Shown here in pieces: positions 8,013 through 36,436 of a stretch of 64,000 bases of DNA. This stretch comes from Acidobacteriaceae bacterium (GTDB lineage: Bacteria; Acidobacteriota; Terriglobia; Bryobacterales; Bryobacteraceae): positions 12,980 to 76,979 of the forward strand of contig JAFAYI010000008.1 in NCBI GenBank assembly GCA_019240475.1, written 5' to 3'. The notes under the pieces were generated by a model that worked only from the letters and a program-made list of their open reading frames with translations, had not been told where the DNA came from and ran no database searches. The position numbers and the translations under genes are program-made. Numbering within the stretch: position 1 is the stretch's first letter; each line of letters opens with the position of its first letter.

Positions 8013-8027
8013 TCAGGCCCAACGCGT

Positions 8028-14680: not shown

Positions 14681-14756
14681 CTGAGCGATGAACAGGGGCG
14701 CGAAGTACAAGGCGCGAAATACACGGAATGCATAGGCGGTAATCGAGGAGACCACG

Positions 14757-17986: not shown

Positions 17987-19642
17987 ATGAGCTTACGGAT
18001 CGCCCTGTTCGACACAACCTGCCACGTCCCGGAATGCCATCGGAACAAGGCAGTAGTTGTGGATCGGCTGGCGCGAAGCCGCTTTCCTCGGGATCTCGCG
18101 GGACACCTCGGCCCCAGCCTGGGCCGCCAGCCCTCAATTGTGCGCATACGCCGGCTTTCGGTGCGAGTCATTCTCCCTGCCTCTGATTTCACCGAAGACG
18201 CACTGTCGCTCGCGTGGAGCCAGGCATTCGGGAAGGCCTTGTTCACCGCACTCGCCTGTCCGGCAACCGCTGGGCCGGTTGAGATTTTTCGCGCGGATTC
18301 GGTCGCCGCGTTTATCGCGTCCGCGATTTGCGATCTGCTCAACGGCACGGCCGCTACTCAATGGCAATACGCCGAATTCGAGGATTTTTTCAAACGTGGC
18401 GCCACACAGGCTGCTCTAGGGTTGCTCTCTGAATGGCCGCTGCAAACGCTACCAGTGCTTCTGGAGCTTGCGCAACACGGCGTCCTCGCGCGCTTGCTGG
18501 CCCGGTTCGATGAAGTGGCGATGGAGCGGCTATTCACCATCCTCGCGCACCCGGACGACGCCGCCTCGGCCCGGCTTTCGCTAGGCAGTTTATTGGTTGC
18601 AGGCAGGCTCGCGCTTGTGCGGCCGCCGGAAAAATTGGCCGCGCTACGAACGCGTGCATACGCGCTCACACTTTTCGTAGAAGCGCACCGCATGTCGAAA
18701 CATGTCTTATCCCCACGAGAGCTATTTCATGCGCTACTCGCAATCGCCGTTTTGATCGATCCGACGACATCCTGGCAGGACGCGCTCCGAATGCATGCGG
18801 TCGCGGCGTCTTTTCCTTCCAGCGTGAAGGCCTTATTCGAACGATTGCGCAACCATAGTGAAGAGGAATGGCAATGTTCTCATTCCTCAGGCATTCGAGG
18901 CGCCTCCGATTTGCAAAACGGCGGTCTATCGCTCCCCGTCACATCTAGTCGCTCAAGAGAGCAGATTCTTGAGTGGAACCGGCTCCGGTCGAGCATGGCT
19001 GCTCAACTGAATCTGCCGGCGCCACCCCTGGCGGCTTCGGAGGTACGCTGGATCTCGACTGAATGGTGCGGTCTTTTTTTTCTTGTTAGTACGTTAGCGA
19101 GGCTCGGCTGGATCGCGGAGTGGAAGCAACTGGCGGTCTTCCAGACGGGTGGCGTTGCGTGTCTGGTGGCCGGCCTAGCCTTGACGATCGCTGAACAATT
19201 CAATCCCTCCGTGCCCATGCTCGATCCTGGAATCGCACTGTTCGCTGGTTACGCCGGCGATCCGGACCTCGCTCATTTGCGCGGCGTATTCCAGCACACC
19301 CCTCGCGCGGTCCGTCTGAGGGTATTGGAATCTGCAATTGGGCAGCCCCCCGTGGACAGTGCGGCCGAGAGTTGGGCGGAGACACTCGACCGCTTGGCAG
19401 TGTTTCTGGTTGAGGCCTTCGCCACGCGCATTCGCGGCTTCCGGCAGGCCACAAGACGAACCGTTCTGCAGAGCTTCATCGCTCGCCCAGGCAGGCTGCG
19501 CATCGAGCGCAGCCGAATCGTAGTGTTCCCGGCTCCCAACCCTTTTCATGTCGCGGTACATCTCTCCGGCCTGGACGCGCCGGTGGAAGCGGACCGTTGG
19601 ATCGGCGGACTCGCTATCAGTTTCGAATTGGGAGATCTGTGA
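17987..19642 (+). CDS. hypothetical Ala/Leu-rich protein translationally coupled to the AAA+ ATPase (tape-measure or assembly-factor candidate)
   Basis: ATG start; 551 aa. Its stop overlaps the ATPase ATG (TGATG). The sequence is helical and Ala/Leu/Arg-rich. No motif recognised, so the role is inferred from position only. Confidence 0.5.
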   Translation: MSLRIALFDTTCHVPECHRNKAVVVDRLARSRFPRDLAGHLGPSLGRQPSIVRIRRLSVRVILPASDFTEDALSLAWSQAFGKALFTALACPATAGPVEIFRADSVAAFIASAICDLLNGTAATQWQYAEFEDFFKRGATQAALGLLSEWPLQTLPVLLELAQHGVLARLLARFDEVAMERLFTILAHPDDAASARLSLGSLLVAGRLALVRPPEKLAALRTRAYALTLFVEAHRMSKHVLSPRELFHALLAIAVLIDPTTSWQDALRMHAVAASFPSSVKALFERLRNHSEEEWQCSHSSGIRGASDLQNGGLSLPVTSSRSREQILEWNRLRSSMAAQLNLPAPPLAASEVRWISTEWCGLFFLVSTLARLGWIAEWKQLAVFQTGGVACLVAGLALTIAEQFNPSVPMLDPGIALFAGYAGDPDLAHLRGVFQHTPRAVRLRVLESAIGQPPVDSAAESWAETLDRLAVFLVEAFATRIRGFRQATRRTVLQSFIARPGRLRIERSRIVVFPAPNPFHVAVHLSGLDAPVEADRWIGGLAISFELGDL

Positions 19643-21855
19643 TGGACGCCTACCGCGACAGCATCGAGCAAATCAGCGATGAGCTGAACCGCCTGGACCT
19701 GCTGATTCGCCGTGCCCTTATCCTCGCCAGGGACCTGCGCGCGTCTGGAAACGAAGAATATCGCGGACTGCTGATCTCTGAGCAGCAGATCGATCGAATC
19801 CTCGAATCCGGAGAGTTCTTGCACCAGCACTGGAAAACTCAGGAGGAAAACGGCGATAAGCTCACAGATTTAGACCAAAAGCTGGAGCAGGCGCGCAAGC
19901 GCATTGATCGGCGTTGCGAAATGACGGGCAACAAGGGACGAAGTCTTACGTTGCCCCACCTGGCCGCTCGATTTGGGTTGTCGCAGGCGGAAGTGGATCT
20001 ATTGCTGATCGCCATGGCGCCGGAACTGGAGACACGTTACGAAATCCTCTACGCCTATCTGCAAGACGACGTAACTCGCAAACGCCCTAGCGTCGATCTC
20101 GCCCTGAACCTCATCTCGCGTACCGGCCGCGAAAAGCTGATCGCACGACGCTTCTTCGCTACAGGAGCGCCGCTGATTCGGTTCCGCTTAGTGGAACTCA
20201 TCGACGAACCGCATGATCGGCAACCAACACTGCTGCGGAGATTCCTTAAGCTGGATGACTCGGTGCTGGGTTTCCTGTTGGAGCAACCTCCTGTCCGGCT
20301 TCCATTGGGTAATCGTGTGGAATCGCAGCAGAGCATCCAAAGCCTCGAACTCGACCCCATGACCCGCGTCGAGCTTCAAAACCTGGCGGACTCGCTGCAA
20401 AGCGCCGGCGCACCCAAGTCCCTGGTTCGCGTAATAGGCTCGGACCCGGCCGAGCTGCAGAGCGTCGCCTCCGCGTTGTCAAACGCTCACGAGCGACCGC
20501 TGATCGCTCTTGAGCTTGCAGCGCTCGAAAATGAATCCACCGACATCGATCTCCTAATTCGTGACGCAACACTTTATGACGCCGTGGTCGCCGTAGTTGC
20601 TCCTCCGGGCGAACCCTCGACCGGCGCGGAAGAGCCGCAACGCGTGGCGCAAGCGCGAAGGCGATTTTGGAATCTAGTGGAGCATGTCCCTCGCATCGTC
20701 GCGCTCGGTCCCGATAGCGTTTTCGGAGAGGCTCCTACGCACTTGCGTATCTGGAAAATCCAGTTGAAGACCGCAAACTTCGAGCAGCGCCGGCAAATGT
20801 GGGAAAGCGCCTTGTCTGAAACCGCTCATGATGCCGATGCAAGTCGTCTGGCCGACACGTTTCGATTCGGCGGTGCACATATACGCCAGGCGGTTGCTAT
20901 GGCGCATTCGCTCGCCGGAATCCGAGATCCCTCCCAACCTGTATCTTCCATGAGCGACCTCTTGGAGTCGGGTCGCGCTCTCAGCGGTTCTAACCTGCGC
21001 CGCTACGCTACGGTCGTTCAGCCCAGGTACTCGTGGTCCGACATTATTCTCCCCGACGAGAAGCGCCGGCAACTGGAACACATTGCCATCCGCGTCAAGC
21101 ATCGCCGCACTGTCCACTATGAATGGGGATTCGGAGAGAAGCTCTCGCGAGGAAAGGGACTGAACGTGCTCTTTTCGGGGCAATCCGGCGTCGGAAAGAC
21201 AATGGCCGCCGAGGTGCTGGCAAGCGATCTGTCTCTGGTCCTGTTCCAGATTGACCTTTCAAGCGTCGTCAGCAAGTACATTGGGGAGACCGAAAAGCAT
21301 CTGGCCGCCATCTTCCGGGAGGCGGAGATGAGCCAGAGCTTGCTGTTCTTCGACGAAGCCGATGCTTTATTCGGCAAACGCACAGAGATCAATGACGCGC
21401 ACGACCGCTACGCCAACCTGGAAGTCAATTACCTGTTGCAGCGCATTGAGCAATACGAAGGTCTGGTAATCCTGGCAACCAATATGCAGCGCAACTTGGA
21501 TGATGCATTCCTGCGCCGCATCCAGGAGGTGATTGATTTTCCCCTTCCCGATGAAATACTGCGCGAGCGCATCTGGCGTCGGCATCTTCCAGCCAACGCC
21601 CCGGTCGACGCAAGTATCGATTACACTTTTCTGGCGCGTCAGTTTAAGCTGACCGGCGGCGACATCAAAAATGCGGTGATGACCGCCGCATTTCTGGCGG
21701 CGAGCGGATCGAAAAGAATCGGAATGGCCGAGATGATCCGCGCAGTTCGCATCGAGCTTCAAAAGCAGGGCAAGCTCGTGATGAAAACCGATTTTGGCAA
21801 GTACTTCGAGGCTGCCCACCAGTCCTCCGATTTGTCTCAACCTTTGAAGAACTAG
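19642..21855 (+). CDS. AAA+ ATPase (Afp15/Pvc15-like CIS assembly/loading ATPase)
   Basis: Start at ATG 19642. The C-terminal AAA+ module has Walker A GQSGVGKTMAAE, Walker B LLFFDEADALFGKR, and ILATNMQRNLDDAFLRR. It has a long N-terminal region, as in eCIS ATPases. Confidence 0.9.
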   Translation: MDAYRDSIEQISDELNRLDLLIRRALILARDLRASGNEEYRGLLISEQQIDRILESGEFLHQHWKTQEENGDKLTDLDQKLEQARKRIDRRCEMTGNKGRSLTLPHLAARFGLSQAEVDLLLIAMAPELETRYEILYAYLQDDVTRKRPSVDLALNLISRTGREKLIARRFFATGAPLIRFRLVELIDEPHDRQPTLLRRFLKLDDSVLGFLLEQPPVRLPLGNRVESQQSIQSLELDPMTRVELQNLADSLQSAGAPKSLVRVIGSDPAELQSVASALSNAHERPLIALELAALENESTDIDLLIRDATLYDAVVAVVAPPGEPSTGAEEPQRVAQARRRFWNLVEHVPRIVALGPDSVFGEAPTHLRIWKIQLKTANFEQRRQMWESALSETAHDADASRLADTFRFGGAHIRQAVAMAHSLAGIRDPSQPVSSMSDLLESGRALSGSNLRRYATVVQPRYSWSDIILPDEKRRQLEHIAIRVKHRRTVHYEWGFGEKLSRGKGLNVLFSGQSGVGKTMAAEVLASDLSLVLFQIDLSSVVSKYIGETEKHLAAIFREAEMSQSLLFFDEADALFGKRTEINDAHDRYANLEVNYLLQRIEQYEGLVILATNMQRNLDDAFLRRIQEVIDFPLPDEILRERIWRRHLPANAPVDASIDYTFLARQFKLTGGDIKNAVMTAAFLAASGSKRIGMAEMIRAVRIELQKQGKLVMKTDFGKYFEAAHQSSDLSQPLKN

Positions 21856-21858
21856 CGT

Positions 21859-23751
21859 ATGGGCGCACCCGAGATCGTTTCCTTCGAAGAAGAGATCGCC
21901 TTCCGAAATCCGGCGAAAGCCGTATCGCCCGAACAATTCACCATTCCAGAAAGCGGGCACGACCCCACGGTTGACAGGTTTTTTGGCGCGAGCGCGCTTT
22001 CTGTACCCCACCTGAAGGCGCCGGTGTTGCAGCGCGCTCAACGCCTCTACGGGAATCAAGCCTCAGGGCAAATCGTCATGCGCGCCCGCGCACTCCAACG
22101 CCGCTGCGCTTGCGGAGGAACATGCGAGAAGTGTCAAGCCGCCGTTCTTAATACGCAAGGAGAACCGTTACAGTCTAGCTCCCGCCGCCCTCTTGAGAAT
22201 CATTTCCAAATCGATCTCGCCGACATCCGCATTCACACCGGCGCCGAAGCAGCGGAGTCCGCACGAAACCTCGACGCGCTTGCCTACACCAGCGGCCGCG
22301 ATATTTATTTCGCTCACGGGATGTATGCGCCCTCCAGCACAAGCGGTCACCGATTGCTCGCGCACGAAGTAGCACACGTAGTGCAGCAGAGTTCCGGCAA
22401 AGAGCCGAGCATCGCCACGAAGTCGGCGCACGGCCCGAAGATCGGCGCGCCGGACGACCCGCTCGAATACGAAGCGGAGGGAGAAGCCGAGGATTACATC
22501 CATGCTCGCCCGAGAGATACGAACGAAGCCGGAAAGCGCGCTCCTTTGGGCACGGGACCTGGATCCATCCAGAGACAATCCGCTCCAGGAGTCCACGTTT
22601 CCTATCCCACGGCTCCGCACGACAAATCAGCTCCCGAGGTCGAATCGATGTACCGGCGCGCGGGATTGCAGGATGCGGCAAATGCAGTCCGACAATGTCG
22701 CGAAGGCAATTGTTCCCATGTGCTCACAGAGGCGGAGGCCTATGAGGCCTATCGAACGGGAAGATTGAGTGCGGGATTGGGTGAGCCTTCAGTAGATGAA
22801 AGGCGAACATCATCTAGCCCAAATATTGCCGCGGGGGGCGTTCTTACCGGGGCCGTTGTCGCAGGAACGCTTCCGGCTGGACAGACTGCGGTCGGCGCCT
22901 CTGCCTCAACAGCCTTGGAACGAGCTGCGCTGCGCTGGGGCACAGCGGAAGTGATCGAGGGTGGGACTGCCGCCAGCACTGCAACCGTTACCGCTGGCAC
23001 CGTTGCTATCCCAGTCGCCGCCGGGATCTATTTGGTTGTAGCAACGGTCGCTCTGCTACGATACGCGAGCTTTCAGACGACTCTGCAACGAGAGGGTTAC
23101 ACAATTTTACCGAATCCTTTTCAGGTATGTATTGCCGGCTGTCATCAGCCAGCCGCGCCCGATTACAAACCGATCGATCCAGGGCTCTGGGAGCCCCTGA
23201 CTCCCCTTGGACCGTCCGATTTTTCAAAGCCGGACTTGGACGCGCTTCGCCGGTGGGTGGAAGCCGAACCTCAGCACCCACCAGGAAACGGGACTACTAA
23301 CGCGCCACCTGAAACGGATCCGGGGCTCTCTCGGCCGATCACAGCAGGGCCGGCGCCGAAGCCCCGACCTGTCATGGACCCTGCATTACCGGAAGCAGAG
23401 AAGCGAAAATGGGAGCGTTGCAATGAGCTGTACGAACAGTACAAAAAGACACAGGGAGACGAAGCGGGATACGGCGAGAACCTGCGACGGCTTCGACTCA
23501 TACTGCAGTCCGGGAACGCGACCCCGCCGGAGCGGCATGCCTTCTGCCTTCTACTTCGATTACGCATCCAGCTCGTGAAACAGTTGCTGAACCAGCGAAT
23601 GGAATACCTTGCCAACTTTTGTGATGAATTCGACTGGTTCAGCCGTGGCACTACCCCTCAACAGCGTGCTAATCAACACTGGCTGGAGGTGCAAAATGTC
23701 ACGGCACACCTGAATCAACTCGAAGGTTATCTGCGACAGTTCTGCCCCTGA
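21859..23751 (+). CDS. DUF4157-domain protein, candidate eCIS payload 1
   Basis: The ATG lies 3 nt after the ATPase stop. It contains CACGGTCEKCQ, then RPLENHFQIDLADIRIHTG..AYTSGRDIYFAHGMY..LLAHEVAHVVQQ (DUF4157 with HExxH). A Gly/Ala-rich hydrophobic stretch follows, then an unassigned C-terminal domain. Confidence 0.75.
   Translation: MGAPEIVSFEEEIAFRNPAKAVSPEQFTIPESGHDPTVDRFFGASALSVPHLKAPVLQRAQRLYGNQASGQIVMRARALQRRCACGGTCEKCQAAVLNTQGEPLQSSSRRPLENHFQIDLADIRIHTGAEAAESARNLDALAYTSGRDIYFAHGMYAPSSTSGHRLLAHEVAHVVQQSSGKEPSIATKSAHGPKIGAPDDPLEYEAEGEAEDYIHARPRDTNEAGKRAPLGTGPGSIQRQSAPGVHVSYPTAPHDKSAPEVESMYRRAGLQDAANAVRQCREGNCSHVLTEAEAYEAYRTGRLSAGLGEPSVDERRTSSSPNIAAGGVLTGAVVAGTLPAGQTAVGASASTALERAALRWGTAEVIEGGTAASTATVTAGTVAIPVAAGIYLVVATVALLRYASFQTTLQREGYTILPNPFQVCIAGCHQPAAPDYKPIDPGLWEPLTPLGPSDFSKPDLDALRRWVEAEPQHPPGNGTTNAPPETDPGLSRPITAGPAPKPRPVMDPALPEAEKRKWERCNELYEQYKKTQGDEAGYGENLRRLRLILQSGNATPPERHAFCLLLRLRIQLVKQLLNQRMEYLANFCDEFDWFSRGTTPQQRANQHWLEVQNVTAHLNQLEGYLRQFCP
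21967..22479 (+). repeat. copy 1 of a ~513-bp direct repeat encoding the DUF4157 cassette
   Basis: The encoded 171 aa (TVDRFFGA..DPLE.EAE) are near-identical to those of 24433-24945, with roughly 15 substitutions by eye. Flanking sequence is unrelated on both sides. Confidence 0.85.
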
Positions 23752-23753
23752 AA

Positions 23754-24263
23754 ATGACCAGCTCAGCGTATACCGCCGTCCAGCGTGCTTGGAACACGAT
23801 GCCCGCACCTCCGGTTGAGGATCTGCAATTGATGGAGTGGGGCTGGGGTGAGAAGGCTGCCCGTGAGTTCGTGGGAGTGGCGCCGAGCAAAGTGAATATC
23901 GAATCAGAGGGCTTCGCGGCTGCAACGCCACTTCTCGATCTGGCGCCTCGGGCAGCCGCAGCTTATCTTGGCCCCTATTTGTTGTCGCTGCTGGCTGGGC
24001 TTGATTTCCAGAAGAAGGTCGGGCTGTTCGATGACGTCCTTATTCGCGCACACACCCTCACGTGCCTGACCAGTCCAGAATTTTGGGCTGGAGTGATTCG
24101 TCCTTTTCTGCCCAACGAATGTCGCCAAGCCTTGGTCGAAGTAGTTGCGTATCTCTCCTCTGAACGCCGGATGCTTTCACTCACCGACGAGCAAGTCGAG
24201 ACCATGCTTGCCGAGGCAGGGCTAAAGAGAAGATCGGGTGAGACCAAACCATGCGGCGAGTGA
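23754..24263 (+). CDS. small protein immediately downstream of payload 1 (immunity/chaperone candidate)
   Basis: The ATG lies 2 nt after the payload 1 stop; 169 aa. No motif recognised with confidence, so the role is inferred from position. Confidence 0.45.
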   Translation: MTSSAYTAVQRAWNTMPAPPVEDLQLMEWGWGEKAAREFVGVAPSKVNIESEGFAAATPLLDLAPRAAAAYLGPYLLSLLAGLDFQKKVGLFDDVLIRAHTLTCLTSPEFWAGVIRPFLPNECRQALVEVVAYLSSERRMLSLTDEQVETMLAEAGLKRRSGETKPCGE

Positions 24264-24321
24264 TGCAGTGGCGTTCATCAGCATGACAGGCGGCTGTGCA
24301 GGAAACGGCTAAAACCCAGGT

Positions 24322-27300
24322 ATGAGTGCGTCCGCTGAGCCAGTTTCAATCGCAAAAGAAACCACCTCCCGAACTCCGGAAGGGGGCGCCCCCGCGCCTC
24401 AATCGACTGTCGCAGGAATCCAAGGCGATCACACGGTGGACCGGTTCTTTGGTGCGGACGCGCTGTCTGTTCCCCGCCTAAAAGCGCCTGTGTTGCAGCG
24501 CGCACAACGCTTGTACGGAAACCAGGCGTCAGGACAAATCGTCATGCGTGCGCGGGCACTTCAACGTCACTGCGCATGCGGAGGAACATGCGCGAAGTGT
24601 CAAGCCGCCGTGCCTGATACGCAAGGAGAACCGTTACAGCTTAGCTCCCGCCGCCCTCTCGAGAATCATTTCCAAACCGATCTCGCCGCCGTCCGCATTC
24701 ACACCGGCGACGAAGCAGCGGAGTCCGCACGAAACCTCGACGCGCTTGCCTACACCAGCGGCCGCGATATTTATTTCGCTCACGGGATGTATGCGCCCTC
24801 CAGCACAAGCGGTCAGCGATTGCTCGCGCACGAAGTGGCGCACGTGGTGCAGCAGAGTTCGGGCAAAGAGCCGAGCATCGCCACGAAATCGGCGCGCGGC
24901 GCGAAGATCGGCGCGCAGGAGGACCCGCTCGAGTCCGAAGCGGAGCGTAGAGCTGAGGAGTTCACTTCGCACCCGCAAACCGCTCTCACCGACGAAGAGG
25001 AACGCAAGAAGCTCTCGACGATCCCAGGGCATCCTCCCATTCAGAGGCAACCAGATCCCGCTCAACCCTTCTCCGAACCGGCGGCCGAGTGGCCCGCAAC
25101 CGAAAGCGCCGCCGACCTCGTCTGCAAAGGAATCGAAGATGACAGCATCGATGAAGTCGTCGCGCCGATGCGCGGCTTGTCCATCGCTGGTCTCGCTTCC
25201 GTGCGAACCGCTGTTCTGTTTCGAAAGACAACACTCCTCGAACACTGGCTGTTGCAGCGGCACGGTGGAAGTACGCTCGGCGCCATCGTTTCCGCCATAG
25301 CTGTGGGGACCACCTTCGGCACTCGTCCGAAGATTACAGCCACAGCGGAAGAAGGCATGCGGCTTCTCTGGCCGGCGCTGCCGCTAATCGATCGTCTCGA
25401 AGTGTACGACGAAGGATATCGCGAAATTGAGCAGGCCCAACTCGACGTCATTCGTGAATCCAGCCTGAAAGAGCGCGCCGAAGCTCTGCAGAAGCCAGAC
25501 CGGCTGCTCGCCATCTACAAAAACATGAGCGCCAAGGAGGAGTTCGAGGCGCGTAATCTGATGGATTCCAGCGAGGTGGCAAAAGGCGACACCGCGGTTC
25601 GAATGATCCAGAGAGGCGACGACAAAGACGTCGTTTATGACGCTCTCATCGCCCTTGATCGAATCGATCGCAAGTTCGTTTGGGACCAACACTACGACGA
25701 GCTTTATCATCTCCTCGATAGTTCCGAGTTCAAGCTGGTATCCACGCTTACTCATGGCTCGGAAGCGCAGATTATCATCGCCCGGCTACGTCTTGCGACG
25801 GAAGATCGCAAGGACGACATGGAAGCGGTCCACGCCACGGTGGATCGCGCCGTGCAGTTGCTTGCCGAACGCCGGCAACTCCGCGAGGCCCGCTCTGCCA
25901 AGTTGCTGACTGCCGACGACCGCGCCGAAATCGATCAGCGATTGCAAGAATTGGGCGAGCTTGATGAGCTCGTGAAGTTCAGGCGCACCGTTGAGGGCGA
26001 CCTGAAGAAGAACACCTTCATGGAACTGCTGGCGGGGGCCGAGGATCAACAGGCTGCTTTCGGTTCCGACATGGACCGGCTCCTGCAGTTTGCGCCTAAC
26101 GGCAGAGACTTCGCGCTAGAAGCCGCAAAGCAGCGCGTTCTAATCGCCGGTGGCAACGAGGATCAGCTAAGAAGTATTCTGCTCACCACGCACGCGCCTC
26201 AGGAGGCGGGCGACAAGAACAAACGGACTGAGTTGAAGCAATGGGAAGAGGACGTTGAATTCCGAAAAGAGCTCCTGAGCGATCCCCAGGTGAGAGAAGT
26301 CTTCGACGGACTCACTCCCGCCACGCGAATGCACGTCCTCTCCGCGCTCAAAGGCGACGCCTTTGACGACGCGCTGGAGCATCTGAACCAATTGAAGAAC
26401 TCCGCGCAATGGGGCGAGTTCTTTGCGCTCGTCCGCACGGTGGCTCTCAACCCCGATTGGCGGGAGCGTTTCATCGCGACTCGCACGCAGTATTGGAGTC
26501 TTTATGCATTCGTCTCGGGCGAAGAGCGCGAAATCATGGAGAAGATTCTCTATGACCCCGAGCACAAAGTGCCCATCATCGCGCTTTTGCGGTACACGGG
26601 CAGCGTATCTACGCTCAAGGCTGCCTTCGCAAACCTTCAGGAGAGCGACCGCGAACAGCTTCGTACCGGTTGGGCGATGGCCAACCATCCCTTCATTGGC
26701 CCGCGCTCGGAGCAGCAGGACACGGCCCTCACGGCGTTCCGGACTTTCGAACAGGAGCTTCTAAAGTCTCAGGGTTCCGATCACGAAGGCTACGAAACGA
26801 TTCTCACCACCGTTCTCGGAACCGCCCCCACTAAATCCGAGATCGCCACAGGCGAAGGCCGCTACAATGCCGCCGCGATTCTTGCCGAGCGTGTCGAAAA
26901 GCGCCTGGGGCTTGAGCGCGGCATTTCCGCGGAGTTCACTGAGACCGACGAAACCATGGACGCCGCCGGACGCCAATTCGCTGCGCTATGGCTTCGTCTG
27001 AAGGGTCAGGCCGAGCTCTCCATCGTCGACTACGCCACGCTCCTGACCCTGTACCAACAGTTCGATAAGCGTGCTGAGGAATTCGGCGAAGCTTCTAAAG
27101 CTATCACGGATGTTGCAGGCACCATCGCGGCGACACTTGCTGGAATCATTGTCGTAGTCGCGACCGGCGGGGCGGCCACACCCGCCGTTGTTGCCATGGC
27201 CGCCGCGGCGGGTGCGGCGGGTGGGTTCGTTGCACGCGAGGCCTTTGGGGGCGACTACTACACGGCTATGAGTAGCGAAGGCGGCCGTGCGCTGTTGCTC

Positions 27301-28836
27301 GATTCCATAAACGGCGCGCTTGCAGTTTTGAGCGGCAGCCTTGCCGCCCGCGGCGTTGAACTTATCGGCCTCAGTGGCGATGCGCTCGCGCAAGGCATGG
27401 CGCGCGTCGGTGAAGGCGCTGTTCAGGAGGCGGCGCAGTCTCTCGGCCGCAAGGCTGTTGTCGCCGGAGTCGAAGCCGCGTTAGACGGGATGATCTCTGG
27501 AAGCATCAGCGAGGCCGCCGCGACCTTCACAGACGATCGCACGTGGCGCGAAGGAATCATGGAAGGCCTCTCGCGCGTCGGCAAGGCAGCGCTTCTCGGC
27601 GGTCTGTTCGGGATGGCTGGCGGAGCCGTCCTTGGATCCGCCATGCCGGTAGTCGGTCGCGTTGCCGGCAGGGCATGGAAGGCGGTGACCGCCGGCACAT
27701 TGGAGAAGACTCTCATTCGTGCAGGCATGGAAGACGTGCTTAAGGCAGCGGAGGCGGCCGCCAGGAGCGGGGACTCGCACGCCCTGGAAATGATGATGAC
27801 GCAAATGGAGGCGAACCTCAGCACCGAAGATGCCGCCCTCTTGCGCAAACAGCTCGGCAAAAAACTGGAGGAAGCGCTAGGGCATCCGCCAGGACGTGCA
27901 GACCTCATGCGCGACCAGGAAAAGCTGCTCGCCGCAAGCGGAAACAAAGAATCCGACCTGACAAAAGATGAGCTTGACGCCGAGCTTGACGTTGTCGCTC
28001 GCAGCGAGCCGCAGATCAGCAACGAACCCGGATACGTCGATGAGGTCGACCTCGGCTATGGACATACGTGGCGGCGCACCGAAGAAGGCACGTGGTGCCG
28101 CTTCACGAGGAAGTCCCTCTGCGGCACCAAGATCCCCGGCGCCCGCAAGATGTCGCGAGGCGCCCTGAATCGGGCAAGGCTCCTCAGTGACAAGGATATT
28201 AATGAGTGGACCAAGAACCTCGACAAACTTGCCGCTGAGGGCGGTGGGGCCGCCGCTGAAGCAGCGAGCCAGACTGCTACCGTCACCTACAACCTGCAGG
28301 ATGCCATTGATGCCGCACTTGTGGATATGAAGGGCAAGTGGGCCGGCAATATGGCCGAGAAGGGCACTCGCTTGCATGCTGCGCTTGCCCGGCGCATTCA
28401 GGAGATGGGCCTGAAGCTGCCCTCGACCATTGATGTCCAGGTTGAACAGCAGCTTAAGAACGTCTTCAACATACCCAAAAACGTTCAGAAGAAAACCGTT
28501 CGTGAGTGGCTGCAATTCGAAGGCAAGGGAGGCGGACGCGCGCACGATTGGTTAGTTCCATATCTGGATAGACGCGTACTCGATACTGCTGTCGGCGAGT
28601 TGAAACTCGACGCGGTCTTTCGCGTCGAGGGACAGACGATCATTTTCGATTTGACCAGTAGGGAAAGCGCCAGTCACCTCGCCAAATCCACACTTTACTC
28701 GCTGCTCGGCAGCGAGGAAAATCAACTGTCTCGCGTACAGGAATACTATTGGGCCCAGAGCTATGCACATGAGGCAGAAGAGAACGAAAGGGCTGCTGTC
28801 CGGCGAAGTTCAACGGCTTCAGCACCAGTAAAATAA
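24322..28836 (+). CDS. large DUF4157-domain protein, candidate eCIS payload 2 (1504 aa)
   Basis: It carries the same DUF4157 cassette as payload 1. This is followed by a long helical region, a Gly/Ala-rich hydrophobic block (about nt 27100-27690), and a distinct C-terminal domain of about 280 aa. Confidence 0.75.
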   Translation: MSASAEPVSIAKETTSRTPEGGAPAPQSTVAGIQGDHTVDRFFGADALSVPRLKAPVLQRAQRLYGNQASGQIVMRARALQRHCACGGTCAKCQAAVPDTQGEPLQLSSRRPLENHFQTDLAAVRIHTGDEAAESARNLDALAYTSGRDIYFAHGMYAPSSTSGQRLLAHEVAHVVQQSSGKEPSIATKSARGAKIGAQEDPLESEAERRAEEFTSHPQTALTDEEERKKLSTIPGHPPIQRQPDPAQPFSEPAAEWPATESAADLVCKGIEDDSIDEVVAPMRGLSIAGLASVRTAVLFRKTTLLEHWLLQRHGGSTLGAIVSAIAVGTTFGTRPKITATAEEGMRLLWPALPLIDRLEVYDEGYREIEQAQLDVIRESSLKERAEALQKPDRLLAIYKNMSAKEEFEARNLMDSSEVAKGDTAVRMIQRGDDKDVVYDALIALDRIDRKFVWDQHYDELYHLLDSSEFKLVSTLTHGSEAQIIIARLRLATEDRKDDMEAVHATVDRAVQLLAERRQLREARSAKLLTADDRAEIDQRLQELGELDELVKFRRTVEGDLKKNTFMELLAGAEDQQAAFGSDMDRLLQFAPNGRDFALEAAKQRVLIAGGNEDQLRSILLTTHAPQEAGDKNKRTELKQWEEDVEFRKELLSDPQVREVFDGLTPATRMHVLSALKGDAFDDALEHLNQLKNSAQWGEFFALVRTVALNPDWRERFIATRTQYWSLYAFVSGEEREIMEKILYDPEHKVPIIALLRYTGSVSTLKAAFANLQESDREQLRTGWAMANHPFIGPRSEQQDTALTAFRTFEQELLKSQGSDHEGYETILTTVLGTAPTKSEIATGEGRYNAAAILAERVEKRLGLERGISAEFTETDETMDAAGRQFAALWLRLKGQAELSIVDYATLLTLYQQFDKRAEEFGEASKAITDVAGTIAATLAGIIVVVATGGAATPAVVAMAAAAGAAGGFVAREAFGGDYYTAMSSEGGRALLLDSINGALAVLSGSLAARGVELIGLSGDALAQGMARVGEGAVQEAAQSLGRKAVVAGVEAALDGMISGSISEAAATFTDDRTWREGIMEGLSRVGKAALLGGLFGMAGGAVLGSAMPVVGRVAGRAWKAVTAGTLEKTLIRAGMEDVLKAAEAAARSGDSHALEMMMTQMEANLSTEDAALLRKQLGKKLEEALGHPPGRADLMRDQEKLLAASGNKESDLTKDELDAELDVVARSEPQISNEPGYVDEVDLGYGHTWRRTEEGTWCRFTRKSLCGTKIPGARKMSRGALNRARLLSDKDINEWTKNLDKLAAEGGGAAAEAASQTATVTYNLQDAIDAALVDMKGKWAGNMAEKGTRLHAALARRIQEMGLKLPSTIDVQVEQQLKNVFNIPKNVQKKTVREWLQFEGKGGGRAHDWLVPYLDRRVLDTAVGELKLDAVFRVEGQTIIFDLTSRESASHLAKSTLYSLLGSEENQLSRVQEYYWAQSYAHEAEENERAAVRRSSTASAPVK
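24433..24945 (+). repeat. copy 2 of the ~513-bp DUF4157 cassette direct repeat
   Basis: See 21967-22479. The repeat occupies the same reading-frame position in both genes, at aa 37/38 onward. Confidence 0.85.
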
Positions 28837-29290
28837 CTTCGGTCAGCTGGTGAATTTGGTCCGGGCCCATCAGAAACTTTCGCTGATTGCGGCCTCGATC
28901 CGGTAGCGCCCCGGCCTGAACTTGGCTAGAAAAAAAAGAAACGAACTCTCATTTGCAATCACTAATGCTTGCGATATAGTAAACGGACCGGGGTTCAATT
29001 GCCGACGTGTAACGACCGCTTTCGTAGCCGCTAGCTGCGCACGGGTTGAGTTGGCGGATCTTATACAAGCTGTTTCACGTGGCTGAATTGGGGGTGTCGA
29101 AGTCGATTGCAGGATTCGAATAACCATTGGCATTCAACGCGCTTTCTGCATGCCGTTCGCAGATTGAACGGTTTAAAACGGGCGTCAAGCACAGCTTGAT
29201 CGCCCATGGTTGAAGACCGCGTTCTCAAACTCCGATGCTGCCTTTTCCTTCTCCGGAATCGGCCGGCACGGTGAAGGAGGTTCCTCATTT

Positions 29291-30769
29291 ATGGGTGCAC
29301 CCACGGGTGGCGCCGCTCCAGGACGAAACGCCGCTGGCACTGTAGAGTGCGTAATATGCGGCCGCGAAAACCCCATTGGACGACTTTATTGTTACAACTG
29401 CAGACAGCGGCTCCCGGCTTCGCGAGCCCCAGATGACGGGCTTCCCCCTACCGTCCAGCCGGATGCTTTGCCGGTCCTGCTCGAACAAACGCAGAATCAA
29501 AACCAACAACTGCGCGAGCAACTCGCATCTCTGCAGCAGGAGCTCGCGAACCTCAAGGCTGCAAGCGCTAAACCAGAGGCTTCCCCAACGCTCGTCAATG
29601 AATTGCAAGAGAAGCTCAAGGTATCGGAGGAAAAGGTGGCCGCATCGACCTTCCACGCGAGCGGGATGGAGAGTAAGTGGAAGGCAGCAGCAGAGACTGT
29701 CGCCAAACTCGAACACCAGCTCGCGGCTAAGGCTGCGGAGTTTGAAGCACACCTTAAGAGTCACCCCGGACCCGAGAAATCGCAACACTCGTCTTCGCTC
29801 CTTGCTGAGCTTGGCGACAAATTAAAGGCGGCTGAGGAAAAAGCCTCCGCCTGGTTTTCGCACGCAGCTCGCATGGAGGGCAAGGCCAAGGCAGCCGAAG
29901 AAAAGGCGGCCACGCTCGAAAACCAGCTTGCTGCCGCGGCTCAAGAAACTCAAGAAATCAAGAAAAATCTGGCCGGAGAGAAGGGGAAGTCGCCTATATC
30001 GATGATCGCCGCAATAGTGGGAATCCTGGGCGGCATGGGCGGCTTTGGAGCAGGCCACTATCTCTTACCGGCTCCGGTCGATTCGGCAAAAATCCGGCAG
30101 TTGTCGGCGCAACTGGCGGGCGCGCAGCAGCAGATTGGCAGCTTAAAATCTTCGCTCGAAAATGCAGTCTCGAAGGCGACTAAGGAACAAAATGATGCGG
30201 ATTCCCGCATCAATTCCGCGGCTGACGGCCAGAAACAGCTACAGCGTCAGCTCAGCGCGGCAGCTACCACGCAGCATTCGGTCGAAGCGCAACTGGTGCA
30301 AGCACAAGCGACGAATGCATCTCTGAATCAGCAACTCAGGGACCGCAATAATTCCTTCGCCGAGCGCGAGCGACAGTTACAAACTCAGGTGAACACTGCG
30401 GTTGCCGCGCAACGCTCGGCTGAGTCCAGGTTGGCCCAGTTGCAAGCCTCTAACGCAACCTTGACCCAACAACTTAAAGAGCGCAACGACGAATTGGGAA
30501 AGGTCCGTGTCGACCTTTCCCCGAGCGGCACTTTGATTTGGAGCGGTAATCTCGCAGGCAAACGCAATATTGACATTACAAATGGCATTCCGAATTTCGG
30601 CTCCGTGACAGGCAAGCTTCCCGGAAAGTCGTGCAAAGTGTCCACTCACGATAGCCGGGTCAAGATCAAGACACGTCCTTCGGACAAGAATCACTGGAAC
30701 GAATTGTCTTTCGATGTGTCGGGAACGGGAATCGTTCAAGCTCGAATTGATTGGGAGCTATCTCACTAG
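29291..30769 (+). CDS. zinc-ribbon / coiled-coil single-pass membrane protein, function unknown
   Basis: ATG 29291 is preferred, with GAAGGAGG 10 nt upstream; the track start is TTG 29210. It has a CxxC..CxxC ribbon (VECVICGRENPIGRLYCYNCRQR), internally repeated coiled coils, and a TM helix (ISMIAAIVGILGGMGGFGAGHYLL). More coiled coil and a beta-rich C-terminal domain follow. Confidence 0.6.
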   Translation: MGAPTGGAAPGRNAAGTVECVICGRENPIGRLYCYNCRQRLPASRAPDDGLPPTVQPDALPVLLEQTQNQNQQLREQLASLQQELANLKAASAKPEASPTLVNELQEKLKVSEEKVAASTFHASGMESKWKAAAETVAKLEHQLAAKAAEFEAHLKSHPGPEKSQHSSSLLAELGDKLKAAEEKASAWFSHAARMEGKAKAAEEKAATLENQLAAAAQETQEIKKNLAGEKGKSPISMIAAIVGILGGMGGFGAGHYLLPAPVDSAKIRQLSAQLAGAQQQIGSLKSSLENAVSKATKEQNDADSRINSAADGQKQLQRQLSAAATTQHSVEAQLVQAQATNASLNQQLRDRNNSFAERERQLQTQVNTAVAAQRSAESRLAQLQASNATLTQQLKERNDELGKVRVDLSPSGTLIWSGNLAGKRNIDITNGIPNFGSVTGKLPGKSCKVSTHDSRVKIKTRPSDKNHWNELSFDVSGTGIVQARIDWELSH

Positions 30770-30828: not shown

Positions 30829-32169
30829 ATGGCTAACGCTACAGTTGCTTTGGTGGAAGAGGGATCGCATCTTGAGGATGCATTGCGTAAGCACCTGGAA
30901 TCAGCCGGGTTCGATGTGTTGTTGGCTTCTCACGACGCGCTGGACCGTGTGCTTCTTTCGCCTGCTCGCCTGTTCATAGTCGCGAACCGCTCCCCCGATA
31001 CCGCCTACGCCGTTTCTGTACTTCAGCGCCTTCACCGAGCGCGTTCGGTCGTTCCCGTCTTCCTCCTGGCTCGGGTGAGTTCAGAGCAGTTGGCCGTTGC
31101 CGCTCTTAAACAAGGGGTGGCCGATTACTTCGCTCCACCGATCGATTTGCATGACGTGATGACCGTGGTGCGTCGCGCCACCGCTTCCCGATTCGCTTTT
31201 GCGGACCGCGAGTTTAAAGTGGATAACCCGACGGGAGGCCGCGACATGATCGGCGAGAGCATCTCCATGCGCGAGCTTCGCACCTACGTCGGGAAAGTGG
31301 CGCAACGGGAATGTAACGCTCTTATCCTGGGTGAAACGGGAACGGGAAAAGACCTGGTGGCTGAGGCTATTCACTTCAACAGTCCGCGAAAAAGCAAGCC
31401 GTTCGTATCTGTAAACTGCGCTGCAATCCCCGATACGCTGCTCGAAAGCGAACTCTTCGGGTACGAAAAAGGCGCCTTCACTGGCGCGGACGGCTCCAGA
31501 GAAGGCAAAATTGGCCAGGCACAAGGCGGAACCCTCTTTTTAGATGAGATCGGCGATATGACACCCTATGCCCAAGCCAAAATCCTGCGCGTCATTGAAA
31601 GTAAGCAGATTCAACGGTTGGGAGGCAAAGCTTGCATTCCGGTAAATGTGAGAATTCTCGCCGCCACCAATCAAAATCTGCCGAAGCTGATTTCTGAACA
31701 GCGCTTTCGTAAAGACTTATACTTCCGGCTGAATGTTGCGCAAATCCCGCTGCCTTCGCTTCGCGACCGACGCGAGGATATTGGCGCGTTGCTGAACTAT
31801 TATGTGGGCGTATTCAATCACCAGAGCGGGTCACGTGTGGAAGGTTTTACAGCGCGCGCTCTGATGCGGCTCACCGAGTATGATTGGCCTGGCAACGTCC
31901 GAGAACTGCGAAGCATGGTTGAGTCCATTTTCATCGATCCGCCGTACCCCCGCATCGACGAGTGTCATCTGCCGCTGACCGGTTCGAACCTCCACCGCGC
32001 CGAAGTGGATGATCGGCAGCGCTTAATGGAGGCGCTCCGAATTACTCATTGGAATAAGAGTAAGGCGGCCGCAAGGCTGCGTTGGTCGCGCATGAAGGTC
32101 TACCGCAAGTTGGCTCAATATCGCATTGAACAACAAACCGAAAAAGCGATGTCAGCGAACGGCGGGTGA
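30829..32169 (+). CDS. sigma-54-dependent transcriptional activator (NtrC-family EBP) with degenerate receiver domain
   Basis: The AAA+ core has Walker A GETGTGKD, the GAFTGA loop (YEKGAFTGA) and LFLDEIGDM. The C-terminus is a Fis-type HTH ([21 protein letters not shown]). The N-terminal receiver-like domain lacks the canonical acidic pocket. Confidence 0.9.
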
Positions 32170-32292: not shown

Positions 32293-34815
32293 CTATTGCA
32301 GCGCACTTGCCGATACCGGCGTTGTCGCGATGCTGGTCAGCTTCCGCTGGCATCCGTCCCAAAGCGCAATCCGCGCCTCAATTCCGCTCTGCGCGGCGCT
32401 CGCCGCCTTGTCCCACAGCTCTTCCCGTTCGCCTGCCAGCCGCTCCAACATTCGCCTCGCCGCGGGACCATGGTTATCCCCATCCAGTTCTATGTGCCTC
32501 TCCAGATAAAACTTGAACGTCGGAACATCCACTTCCGGACTAGCCCAGTGTGAGAGGATCCGTTCGAACATCTCCGGGATGATATCTTCCCGGCCGTACA
32601 GGAAATCCGCTGCCACTTCCACGAGGTGGCCGTTCATCGCAACATCCAATGTGCGCAAGACGAATTTGGAAACATGTGATGGAACCCTTTGGGCTACCAG
32701 CGCATCCGCGGGCGTGCTCCCCGCCTTCAAGGCCGTCAAGAAATTGAGAAATGGGCCGGTATCTGCTCCCACCTCCCGCATTGCAGCCAAATAAATTTCC
32801 AAATGGCTGGCCGGCACGCCATCCGGACCTTCGTCGCTCTCCTCGCTATGGATGATCTCGTTGATGAAACGCGCCAGACTGGCGTCATCGGACGGCATCC
32901 AAGGAAGCCCGGTGCAAGTCAGATCGCGCTGCAGCCGCTTCGCGATCGACATGAAATCCCAAACTGCGTATACATGCTCTTCCATGAACGCGCGCAGCCG
33001 CTCTATACAGTCGACGGTCAGATAGATCGGATGCTGGAGCAATTTGTCCCGCATGGCGAACAATCCGGGGTGCTTCTTCAGAATCGTTGTGGGCAGCTTG
33101 CTCAGGTGCGGCGTGTTGCGTGGATCTGCCGCAGCTGTCAGATTGCGCGGATTGTGGAAGCACAGCGGATCGTCCGCCATGTAGCTGCCCTTGGCCTGCG
33201 CCATACCGCGGCATCCGGGACACCGGTCGCTCTCATAGTAGTAGCAGCTCGCGCACCAGCTATCGGGCGGCCGTTCATATTCGCGTAGATCCTTGACCAC
33301 CGGGCTTTCCGCCAGAATCTTCCGCAGACTGCTTTGCCGAGTGTTCCCGAGCGGAACAAATGTCCCGCTGCACGGACGTACATCCCCTTCGTAGTTCACG
33401 TACAACGAGAAGTAGTTGGCGAGGCATGAATAACCAACGCGCAGCGGCAGCAGGGGCCATGTGTAACCGTATTCGCCGCGGTCCAGCAGCCACAACTCCT
33501 CCCAAAGGTGCTTCAGTTCGAGCGGTGAGAGCAGTTCGCCCGGATCGCCATCGTAGTGGCAGCCTACGAATCTCTCGAAGTACGGAATCATTCCGCGTTC
33601 CCGCGCATATCGCCACATGGTCGGCATGTCGGAAAGGTTCTTCCGAACCACAATACTTTCAAGCGAGATCGGAAGCTTTCCATCCCCGTAGCCGGCTTCC
33701 ATAAGATGGTCGATGCCTTCGAGAACCTTGCGCCACCCTCCCCTTACGCCGACCATCTGGTCGTGTATCCAGGAGCGCGTGCTGTAAAGTTTCACGTACG
33801 GGGCCACCTTGAGCGCTGCCATGTGCTCGGCCTTTTTCCGATCGATCAACGTGCCATTCGTGAAGACCTCAACCTGCATACCGCGCTGCACTGCCCGCTC
33901 GGCCAGATGGAAGAATAACGGCGAAGAGAGCGGTTCGCCGCCGCCGATCAAATCGGCGTTCTTCGCTCCGAGATCGGCCGCCTGATCGATCACGTCGTAA
34001 AGCTCCGCCAAATCCAGTGGCGACTTGGTCGCATTGATATTGACGAAACCTGGCTCGAATTTCTCCAGCTCGAAAACGTTCTTCACATCGCCGAATCCCG
34101 CAAAGCAACCCGTGCAGGCCAGATTGCAGCGATTCGTAAATTCCATGTTGAAGTACAACAGCCGTTCGCGCCGTCGCGCCGACCAATACTCTTCATCGCT
34201 GAATCCCTCCGAATCGAACACCGGCGCCGGTCTCAGCGTTCCTCGCGCAATCTCCAACTCATCGCTTTCCGCGATGCGCTTCAGCACGTCATTCATCTCC
34301 GGTTGCGAGATGGTGTACGAGCGGTCGGTAGGAACCAGCAGCCCGCGGTCGTTCTGATATCTGACGTTCGGACGGGGCTCGACATGAATCTGAGGGCCAT
34401 CCTCTCCGCCGTCCCAGCTAATGCCGCTCGGTAGTGCTTCCGTCAGGCGAACCGGTCCGTCGAACACCACTCGGATGTCGCTTTCGACCGTGTTCTGGCA
34501 TGAGAGCCGCTTCCCTTTGAGGCGCTCGGCATTGGCCGCCTCCACCGCGTTTGGCTGGCTTATACGGCCCTCTATTAGTTCGAACCGGCAGGTCAGGCAT
34601 TTGCCCTCTCCGCCGCAGGTATGCGGAATCGAAATCCCGGAGCCTCGCGTAGCGTCCAAGATCGACTGGGCCGCCTTCACCACAAATGTGCCCTGTCCAC
34701 AGTCCACAGTGAAGGCGCCACCGGGCTGGCTGGAACGTAAGTTCCGCGCTGCTGTTGTATCCTCCACCGGGAAAGTGGCGCCGTTCTGCAACGGACTTCC
34801 GCTCGCTGTGCTCAT
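32293..34815 (-). CDS. three-domain fusion: 2Fe-2S ferredoxin / radical SAM with SPASM extension / DUF3050 (haem-oxygenase-like fold)
   Basis: The ATG has an AAGGAG RBS. The ferredoxin motif is HTCGGEGKCLTCRF..RLSCQ. The rSAM motif is FTNRCNLACTGCFAG (CxxxCxxC). The SPASM region is Cys-rich (RPCSG.., WCASCYYYESDRCPGCRG..DPLCF). The C-terminal HPIYLTV..FMEEHVYAVWDFMSIAKRLQ..PWMP..INEIIHSEESDEG..SHLEIYLAAM resembles DUF3050. Confidence 0.85.
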   Translation of the reverse strand: MSTASGSPLQNGATFPVEDTTAARNLRSSQPGGAFTVDCGQGTFVVKAAQSILDATRGSGISIPHTCGGEGKCLTCRFELIEGRISQPNAVEAANAERLKGKRLSCQNTVESDIRVVFDGPVRLTEALPSGISWDGGEDGPQIHVEPRPNVRYQNDRGLLVPTDRSYTISQPEMNDVLKRIAESDELEIARGTLRPAPVFDSEGFSDEEYWSARRRERLLYFNMEFTNRCNLACTGCFAGFGDVKNVFELEKFEPGFVNINATKSPLDLAELYDVIDQAADLGAKNADLIGGGEPLSSPLFFHLAERAVQRGMQVEVFTNGTLIDRKKAEHMAALKVAPYVKLYSTRSWIHDQMVGVRGGWRKVLEGIDHLMEAGYGDGKLPISLESIVVRKNLSDMPTMWRYARERGMIPYFERFVGCHYDGDPGELLSPLELKHLWEELWLLDRGEYGYTWPLLPLRVGYSCLANYFSLYVNYEGDVRPCSGTFVPLGNTRQSSLRKILAESPVVKDLREYERPPDSWCASCYYYESDRCPGCRGMAQAKGSYMADDPLCFHNPRNLTAAADPRNTPHLSKLPTTILKKHPGLFAMRDKLLQHPIYLTVDCIERLRAFMEEHVYAVWDFMSIAKRLQRDLTCTGLPWMPSDDASLARFINEIIHSEESDEGPDGVPASHLEIYLAAMREVGADTGPFLNFLTALKAGSTPADALVAQRVPSHVSKFVLRTLDVAMNGHLVEVAADFLYGREDIIPEMFERILSHWASPEVDVPTFKFYLERHIELDGDNHGPAARRMLERLAGEREELWDKAASAAQSGIEARIALWDGCQRKLTSIATTPVSASALQ

Positions 34816-34842
34816 TCCTTGCTCCTTAACAACTGTGCTCCG

Positions 34843-36398: not shown

Positions 36399-36436
36399 TA
36401 TTTCGATACAGCTCTCGCCGCGCGAACCGTGTGCCG

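Follow-up and report, generated by a model that had tools for sequence, protein, structure and literature searches.

Contractile injection systems are already known to deliver toxins that bear the DUF4157 domain. Surveys of extracellular contractile injection systems (eCISs) place DUF4157 at the N-terminus of eCIS-associated toxins (EATs), sometimes with linkers of more than 1000 amino acids (aa) (Geller 2021, PMC8213781; Danov 2024, PMC11297309). In AlgoCIS of Algoriphagus machipongonensis, the cargos Cgo1 and Cgo2 have an N-terminal domain (NTD) and DUF4157 in common, differ in their C-terminal domains (CTDs), and lie inside the tube lumen; their loading requires the NTD, DUF4157 being dispensable, and an ATPase has been implicated (PMC8894135; bioRxiv 10.64898/2026.05.27.728243). 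Cargo NTDs resemble each other inside one system, but not from one system to the next (bioRxiv 10.64898/2026.05.27.728243). Tme combines DUF4157 with transmembrane (TM) helices and a C-terminal nuclease (PMC11126660), and archaeal DUF4157 toxins are neutralised by downstream genes (PMC11566945). The design of a DUF4157 handle, a variable toxin, and loading by an eCIS is already established. Here, a 64,000-nucleotide window from an Acidobacteriaceae bacterium (contig JAFAYI010000008.1, positions 12,980 to 76,979) was analysed, in which two neighbouring open reading frames (ORFs), toxin A (630 aa) and toxin B (1504 aa), end an eCIS operon. With a probability of roughly 0.8, A and B are cargo toxins of this upstream eCIS and polymorphic toxins built in three tiers: a handle, a trunk, and an exchangeable tip. 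What appears to be new is two undescribed tips and one undescribed, strictly linked family of putative immunity proteins.

Profile searches against Pfam and other collections identified the contractile injection system operon on the + strand, upstream of ORF A. A and B lie at its 3' end, close to the last core gene, which is the position of eCIS cargo. The adjoining ATPase, the two toxins with their parts, and the ORF between them are as follows.

19597-21855, + strand: AAA+ ATPase with an N-terminal winged-helix domain (WHD), of the Pvc15/Afp15/Alg15 cargo-loading type (Pfam WHD E 2.7e-48, AAA E 2.8e-26)
21859-23751, + strand: toxin A (ORF A), 630 aa, ATG start; handle, trunk, and tip
21859-22575, + strand: A handle, aa 1-239; N-terminal region, LQR at aa 57-59 and 79-81, Cys4 motif CACGGTCEKC at aa 83-92 (22105-22134), DUF4157 core at aa 103-180 (22165-22398), terminal IQR at aa 237-239
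22027-22035, 22093-22101, and 22567-22575, + strand: [LIVM]-Q-R motifs of A, from aa 57, 79, and 237
22363-22377, + strand: HEVAH of A, aa 169-173
22591-23370, + strand: A trunk, aa 245-504; Cys-rich helical part, Gly/Ala/Thr-rich hydrophobic region, Pro-rich linker at the end
22960-23058, + strand: predicted TM helix of A, aa 368-400 (Kyte-Doolittle maximum 2.44)
23371-23748, + strand: A tip, aa 505-630; predicted four-helix domain after the VMPxGLS junction (VM(P/D)xxL)
23754-24263, + strand: 169-aa ORF between A and B
24322-28836, + strand: toxin B (ORF B), 1504 aa, ATG start; handle, long trunk, pre-toxin segment, and tip
24322-25047, + strand: B handle, aa 1-242; LQR at aa 58-60 and 80-82, Cys4 motif CACGGTCAKC at aa 84-93 (24571-24600), DUF4157 core at aa 104-181 (24631-24864), terminal IQR at aa 240-242
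24493-24501, 24559-24567, and 25039-25047, + strand: [LIVM]-Q-R motifs of B, from aa 58, 80, and 240
24829-24843, + strand: HEVAH of B, aa 170-174
25069-27879, + strand: B trunk, aa 250-1186; a region without database match, then a Gly/Ala-rich hydrophobic region
27112-27234 and 27586-27657, + strand: predicted TM segments of B, aa 931-971 and aa 1089-1112 (hydropathy)
27880-28149, + strand: B pre-toxin segment, aa 1187-1276; GHPPG...RSEPQIS.EPGYVDEVDLGxGHTWRR..EGTWCRFT..SLCGTKIPGA
28150-28833, + strand: B tip, aa 1277-1504 (~228 aa); rare, common only to the proteins P0009-P0013 and P0050-P0052

The genes are tightly packed: 3 nt separate the ATPase stop from the start of A and 2 nt the stop of A from the 169-aa ORF, 58 nt then lead to B, and no convincing promoter or terminator was found between A, the 169-aa ORF, and B. 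A homologous WHD and AAA ATPase also lies directly upstream of toxins in locus L007 and in the P0011 contig. A public protein from an Acidobacteriaceae metagenome-assembled genome (MAG), P0001, is 100% identical to A and annotated as "DUF4157 domain-containing protein". The public call for B (P0008, 1466 aa) uses a GTG 38 codons downstream (24436 vs 24322); the upstream ATG at 24322 is preferred here, since P0013 has the MSAxAEP N-terminus too, and A and the 974-aa L007 toxin start in a similar way. Like Cgo1 and Cgo2 (498 and 1228 aa), A and B (630 and 1504 aa) are two adjacent cargos with a common N-terminal region and DUF4157, different CTDs, and an adjoining AAA+ ATPase. Unlike that pair, A and B have handles that are far more alike (88-90% at the amino acid level), predicted TM segments in both bodies, one dedicated immunity gene, and CTDs that match no annotated family; they are also known here from their genes alone.

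The initial annotation, made from the letters alone, had placed a 630-aa and a 1504-aa protein directly after the ATPase and had both begin with a CxCGGTCxKC motif and a DUF4157 core; it had also cited eCIS surveys for DUF4157 at toxin N-termini, accurately in view of Geller 2021 and Danov 2024. Both ORFs were recovered at the coordinates given above and both motifs are present, but about 80 residues precede the cysteine motif, so that the proteins do not start with it. The domain assignment itself holds in a profile search: the 79 positions of PF13699 (eCIS_core, formerly DUF4157; gathering score 22) are covered end to end by the matches to A (94.9 bits, E 3.2e-27, aa 103-180) and B (94.1 bits, E 6.1e-27, aa 104-181). 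HExxH is intact in both, and its H, E, and H are invariant across 31/31 aligned members of the B family. The Cys4 motif is a frequent yet optional element: in a sample of 65 DUF4157 proteins, 25 have it, at a distance of about 70-115 residues upstream of HExxH.

A and B are closely similar in this module and in nothing else. They align by BLASTP at 70% identity over ~260 aa (E 1e-99), the handle core (aa 38-214) reaching 88-90% amino acid identity. The DNA of the module aligns without gaps over 520 nt at 90% identity; one window of 60 nt shows no difference at all, and the 173 codons compared hold 31 synonymous and 18 non-synonymous differences. Past aa ~243 there is no BLASTP alignment, and hhalign likewise aligned the handle module only (E 1.9e-41), which bears out the earlier statement that the C-terminal regions are unrelated. 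The two handles resemble each other more than they resemble those of their own relatives. Between B and its closest orthologues the modules are 55-61% identical, whereas full-length alignments to B give 63-76%; the module of A is 54-61% identical to B-family modules vs about 38-41% for those modules of its own trunk family that the search recovered. The same was seen in each of the three loci compared, even with trunks of different families: handle identity is 72-90% within the window (21859-22575 vs 24322-25047), 74% within L007 (4290-7214 vs 8001-12569), and 50-54% within L003 (2235-8260), and 34-61% between loci. Since handles within a locus are more alike than handles between loci, the handle is tied to the resident system and not to the toxin family, which matches the within-system NTD similarity of AlgoCIS. 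This suggests either within-genome homogenisation or selection to fit the resident loading machinery.

Beyond the handle, profile searches of the C-terminal regions, as proposed in the initial annotation, gave no meaningful match for A or B in Pfam, NCBIfam, PHROGs, or PDB sequences, and the A tip gave no Foldseek match of meaning. The trunks of A and B show no remote homology to each other by hhalign; though unrelated in sequence, both hold predicted TM segments. It is comparison with homologues that resolves these regions. Homologue counts come from a word-indexed search and are lower bounds. Six homologues of A were found (P0002-P0007), in all of which the trunk is conserved. The alignment to P0003 extends to aa 628, four others end at aa 468-471, and that to P0005 ends at aa 524. 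The conserved trunk of A spans aa ~245-470, including a segment GYxILPNPxxVCIxGCHQPxAP between the hydrophobic region and the Pro-rich linker, and the last ~125 aa are an exchangeable warhead. P0002 and P0007 carry Ntox16 tips (PF15523; E 4.7e-12), and the tip of P0006 is different again.

The B family is larger, with at least 42 matches in Acidobacteria, an Anaerolineales MAG, Massilia, and others. Across 30 aligned homologues, aa ~100-1186 are 34-75% identical, and this trunk has no relatives in Pfam, PHROGs, or PDB. It is followed in B and 28 homologues by a common 90-aa pre-toxin segment, GHPPG...EPGYVDEVDLGNGHTWRR..DGTWCRFS..CGT.IPG, and directly after this segment lies a recombination junction at which the distal sequences diverge. 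The distal ~150-300 aa of the family fall into at least eight clusters that BLASTP does not connect at E 1e-4; hhalign found no similarity to the B tip in any of the seven non-B tip groups tested. Among the sister tips are Ntox4 (E 4.6e-10) and one weak match each of the GmrSD/HNH and deaminase types. In L010-L012 (L010 2-5245), a full-length B-family toxin shares 72% identity with B over aa 1-1281 but ends in another tip; without a gap, a 200-aa orphan B-type tip (P0052) comes next, and then an unrelated 566-aa ORF. The orphan looks like a displaced cassette left by recombination. GC content at third codon positions is 0.61 in the B tip vs 0.69-0.72 in the B trunk and pre-toxin segment, a mild difference that was not used as evidence. 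HPPG, present in A (aa 473) and B (aa 1188), was considered as a common demarcation motif and rejected; its occurrence in A is judged coincidental because it is missing from P0003, the homologue that shares the A tip. Most B-family members with the pre-toxin segment keep PPG at the junction, the preceding residue usually being H or R. As a separate observation, orphan B homologues, for which the 8-10 kb to each side hold no recognisable eCIS gene, are each preceded by an ORF of ~370-410 aa (L002 8738-9844, L009 6621-7850, L013 869-1975). These ORFs have no recorded Pfam match, those of L002 and L009 show 94% identity to each other, and the window encodes nothing similar; they may be adaptors for orphan toxins.

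The A tip belongs to a family of its own. When aa 505-630 were searched exhaustively with phmmer, 74 cluster representatives matched at E<=1e-3 and 39 of them at E<=1e-10, and in all 74, which come from proteins 59-1943 aa long, the match is at the extreme C-terminus. Among 65 scanned for their chassis, eCIS_core was found in 22, Tox-PAAR-like in five, and RHS with PT-HINT in one. C521, R580, C588, D589, and H607 are invariant, and Y528, C563, Y583, W593, and R603 nearly so. An AlphaFold2 (AF2) model built with 39 sequences (mean predicted local distance difference test, pLDDT, 96.8; predicted template modelling score, pTM, 0.87) has four helices; its conserved polar residues are concentrated around the beginning of helix 4 and the loop that joins it to helix 3. 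Foldseek comparisons of this model with PDB and BFVD gave only generic helical bundles (best E 0.15 and 0.08), namely BAG, syntaxin, and tape-measure segments. The tip has no Pfam or PDB profile match, and neither a description of the family nor its motif strings were found in searchable literature. Three known groups were considered as its identity. A divergent Ntox16 was rejected (hhalign probability 0.4%). PT6 of Nachmias et al. is unlikely, being an 85-aa Moraxella domain, and the supplement of that paper does not contain the motif strings. A HEPN RNase does not fit, since R603-x3-H607 at the start of helix 4 differs from the HEPN R-x(4-6)-H; HEPN toxins appeared only at Foldseek rank 14 and below (E 0.47, TM-score about 0.35), and no HEPN Pfam match recurs among the 39 members. 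As modelled, the A tip is a new four-helix putative toxin domain family, and its distribution marks it as a mobile C-terminal module used across eCIS, PAAR-like, and Rhs chassis.

The 169-aa ORF accompanies this tip wherever it was examined. A homologue lies directly downstream of the A-type tip in 23/23 loci: in L001 (52% identity, E 3e-50), in 3/3 contigs of Byssovorax cruenta (46-66% identity), and in 18/18 metagenome loci. In 16 of these 18 the match covers 139-168 residues and starts -3 to +40 nt from the toxin stop; of the other two, one is cut by the contig end and one has only a 20-residue match. One B. cruenta locus (L004 371-1040) has two tandem copies of the gene after the A-type tip. 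The partner follows tips on both DUF4157-type and short PAAR-like chassis, and after P0002, which has the same trunk with an Ntox16 tip, the next ORF is an unrelated DUF6714 protein. Because the partner follows the tip in all 23 loci and is swapped when the tip differs on the same trunk, the 169-aa ORF is identified, from gene neighbourhood, as the presumptive cognate immunity protein of the A tip specifically. That it might be a divergent DUF6714 was rejected (hhalign probability 0.7%, BLASTP E 0.65). It belongs to no Pfam family, and inspection found no signal peptide or TM segment, so the A tip probably acts in the cytoplasm. Searches of reference genomes with the 169-aa protein gave no match, the back-translated patterns being too specific, while those with the A tip succeeded. 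Conservation is in general higher among the immunity proteins (42-76% identity) than among A-type tips (27-40%).

These features are those of polymorphic toxins. The domain assignments, the modular boundaries, the exchange of tips, the linkage of tip and immunity gene, and the predicted fold of the A tip are results of the analysis itself. Both families show a conserved N-terminal part, unrelated tips, and a sharp junction between them, and A has in addition an immediately downstream immunity gene that co-varies with the tip. The earlier description of a common handle with a variable warhead is supported by the homologues, with three tiers rather than two. A and B resemble the Rhs, CdiA, MafB, and Ntox polymorphic toxins (Zhang/Aravind) in their conserved delivery part, unrelated tips, downstream immunity, and orphan tips (L010-L012), and junction motifs are found as in those toxins, VMPxGLS before the A tip and ...WCRF..CGT.IPG before B tips. 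They differ in that delivery is proposed to be by an eCIS via the DUF4157 handle and not by type V, VI, or VII secretion systems (T5SS, T6SS, T7SS), and in that B-type tips have no immunity genes in the contexts examined. Compared with the EATs of Geller 2021 and Danov 2024, the tips of A and B match no Pfam toxin domain, and what was a "linker" is here resolved into conserved trunk families with sharp recombination junctions. A DUF4157 N-terminus (Tme), TM helices, a long body, and an exchangeable C-terminus are also seen in Tme of Streptomyces davawensis and in Sle1/Sle2-type proteins, some relatives of which have a downstream immunity gene (PMC11126660, PMC13277306). The likeness to Tme is architectural only (DUF4157, predicted TM segments, and a C-terminal domain): Tme-type proteins are related to phage tape-measure proteins, to which A and B show no remote homology (no PHROGs match at E<=0.01 and no Pfam match beyond eCIS_core). 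In addition, unlike for Tme and Sle1, the host is an acidobacterium and not an actinobacterium, and the tail-fibre genes suggest an extracellular system. Haloarchaeal CIS toxins, like A, bear DUF4157 and are neutralised by the next gene downstream (PMC11566945); unlike A, they belong to an archaeal contact-dependent system, and they are likened to it by description only.

The remaining genes of the operon, and one gene downstream of the toxins, are as follows.

393-1943 and 2489-4786, + strand: two sheath genes (profile matches)
1968-2402 and 4787-5272, + strand: two gp19-type tube genes (profile matches)
5386-6165, + strand: CIS_tube protein (profile matches)
7416-8012, + strand: VgrG-like OB-fold protein (profile matches)
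8786-9196, + strand: gp25 (profile matches)
9196-11241, + strand: baseplate J (profile matches)
11241-13331, + strand: P2-I/NHL protein (profile matches)
13328-17980, + strand: three consecutive genes with a CIS13-family (tail-fibre) N-terminus, 450, 645, and 429 aa
17987-19642, + strand: conserved 551-aa gene, before the ATPase
29210-30769, + strand: 519-aa protein with N-terminal CxxC...CxxC, long coiled coils, and one hydrophobic stretch

Beyond their N-terminal segment the three CIS13-type proteins match nothing further in Pfam or NCBIfam, and they may serve as alternative fibres for receptor binding. The 519-aa protein has only coiled-coil-type matches in Pfam, NCBIfam, and PHROGs; its homologue in L007, a 420-aa ORF, lies downstream of the toxin cluster there (36% identity, E 1e-72). 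Because this homologue is placed likewise, the protein appears to be a conserved accessory of this eCIS type. Just downstream of the toxins, 30829-32169 encodes a sigma-54-dependent activator of the response-regulator type (receiver, Sigma54_activat, HTH_8) that could regulate the eCIS operon. A cluster of unusual enzymes follows at 32293-41773 and includes an 840-aa minus-strand fusion of radical SAM/SPASM, DUF3050, and 2Fe-2S, a GCS2-like ligase, a PRMT-like methyltransferase, two nitroreductase-family proteins, and a TauD/GBBH-like dioxygenase; it may be a small-molecule or peptide-modification pathway.

From these arrangements we infer how A and B would be loaded, inserted into membranes, and act as toxins, and on which targets. 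By analogy with AlgoCIS, the N-terminal part of the handle would be the signal by which the adjacent AAA+ ATPase loads the cargo into the tube lumen. The trunks, with their predicted TM helices, would probably insert in the target membrane and carry the tip across or hold it there (compare Tme). The A tip would then act in the bacterial cytoplasm, the producer being protected by the translationally coupled 169-aa protein; as it requires immunity, A would be an antibacterial effector. The B tip may be harmless to the producer, for example if its target is non-self or eukaryotic, or inactive until delivery. It possibly forms an alpha/beta domain. In a model with a pLDDT of 38.7, the invariant D1430 (LKLD) comes before a predicted strand, D1443-L-T closes the next, and K1455 is in the segment after it. 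This D...D-x-T...K pattern faintly recalls a PD-(D/E)xK-like nuclease, a link that Pfam, PDB, and hhalign comparisons did not show.

Several results weigh against this proposal, or at least against parts of it. Neither tip obtains a function from the searches, the B tip having no Pfam or PDB match. The AF2 model of the B pre-toxin segment and tip (nine sequences, pLDDT 38.7) is unusable. The TM segments of both trunks are predicted from hydropathy only, and disorder of the N-terminal region is judged only by composition, at 60-62% disorder-promoting residues. B has no conserved same-strand downstream partner in six contexts (the window, L002, L007/L008, L009, L013, and the P0011 contig), and given that no immunity gene was found in these, the toxicity of B is the weakest link of the model. 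Finally, P0009 and P0010, close homologues of B, have no eCIS gene that Pfam recognises in the 8-10 kb examined to each side, so that linkage to a particle is not universal for the B family.

Other explanations account for some of these data. Predicted TM helices in both trunks are reminiscent of the Streptomyces CIS effectors Tme and Sle1, which are membrane-associated and act in the producer (PMC11126660, PMC13277306), and A and B, instead of being injected into other cells, could likewise work at or within the membrane of the producer itself, for instance during programmed lysis or differentiation. This is unlikely, because three CIS13-family fibre genes suggest the binding of an external target, the A tip and its immunity gene form a standard cassette of interbacterial competition that is also found on PAAR and Rhs chassis, and no tape-measure similarity was found in PHROGs.

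A second explanation would make the DUF4157 module itself the warhead, a zinc metallopeptidase like the C-terminal domain of VgrG2b, with the C-terminal regions as accessories. The DUF4157-annotated metallopeptidase of VgrG2b is an HExxH-dependent antibacterial toxin (PMC6899460), and HExxH is intact and invariant here. Yet the 169-aa partner tracks the tip and not DUF4157, this tip and its partner are also found with PAAR-like proteins that lack DUF4157, and sister proteins carry recognised C-terminal toxin domains. The toxicity of Cgo1 is, moreover, independent of its metalloprotease motifs (PMC8894135), and neither the A handle, searched as a single sequence, nor the full-length B-family profile matched any solved structure, VgrG2b included. 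A warhead role for DUF4157 is in this light distinctly improbable.

A third concerns the 169-aa ORF, which could be a chaperone or adaptor that stabilises A, for instance by shielding its TM segment or aiding its loading, rather than an immunity protein. T6SS effectors that contain TM segments require dedicated chaperones, which speaks for such a role. Danov 2024 also speculates on chaperone roles near DUF4157 toxins (PMC11297309). Against this, the ORF goes with the tip, not with the trunk that bears the TM helix: it lies after A-type tips on short PAAR-like proteins in which no long uncharged stretch was found, it is absent after P0002, which has the same trunk with an Ntox16 tip, and it has a tandem second copy in one Byssovorax locus, as in immunity arrays. 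It is therefore very unlikely that the ORF is a chaperone instead of the immunity protein of the A tip. Least probable is that B is mainly structural, a length-determining protein like a tape measure with an incidental C-terminal domain: B is long, has predicted TM segments and no immunity gene, and Tme-type proteins are related to tape-measure proteins (PMC11126660), but B has no PHROGs tape-measure match, the usual tape-measure position before the ATPase is taken by a separate conserved 551-aa gene, the tips of the B family are polymorphic (including Ntox4, HNH-like, and deaminase-like ones), a displaced orphan tip is present in L010-L012, and B homologues are found away from CIS genes.

The handle itself has a further regularity that bears on the role of DUF4157 within the cargo-toxin model. 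[LIVM]-Q-R motifs bracket the domain, and the last of them, IQR, is the exact end of the shared handle in both A and B. Among 60 non-redundant modules, 58 such motifs were counted from -140 to -20 of HExxH vs 5.3 +/- 2.4 in shuffles, and 38 from +8 to +110 vs 6.0 +/- 2.4, an enrichment of 6-11 times that is inflated by the shared ancestry of the modules. Per 100 aa, 0.69 motifs were counted inside the module vs 0.086 elsewhere, and no mention of this bracketing was found in searchable literature. It is conceivable that DUF4157 is a cis-acting processing protease and that the [LIVM]-Q-R motifs are its cleavage sites, and, separately, that the A tip represents an enzymatic toxin of a new fold whose active site is formed by C/D/H/R; both ideas are put forward tentatively and are considered doubtful. 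Under the processing idea, the handle would be cut off after loading or injection, and trunk and tip would be released.

In summary, the locus offers a confidently modelled A-tip toxin family that is used by eCIS, PAAR-like, and Rhs delivery chassis, and B adds a widespread trunk family of ~1500-aa proteins with a conserved pre-toxin junction. With two very different cargos on one 90%-identical handle, the pair is a natural experiment for eCIS engineering. The [LIVM]-Q-R motifs around DUF4157 provide a cheap, testable lead on the role of the domain; if true, a role as processing protease would be a concrete, testable function for DUF4157, whose part in eCISs is still called elusive.

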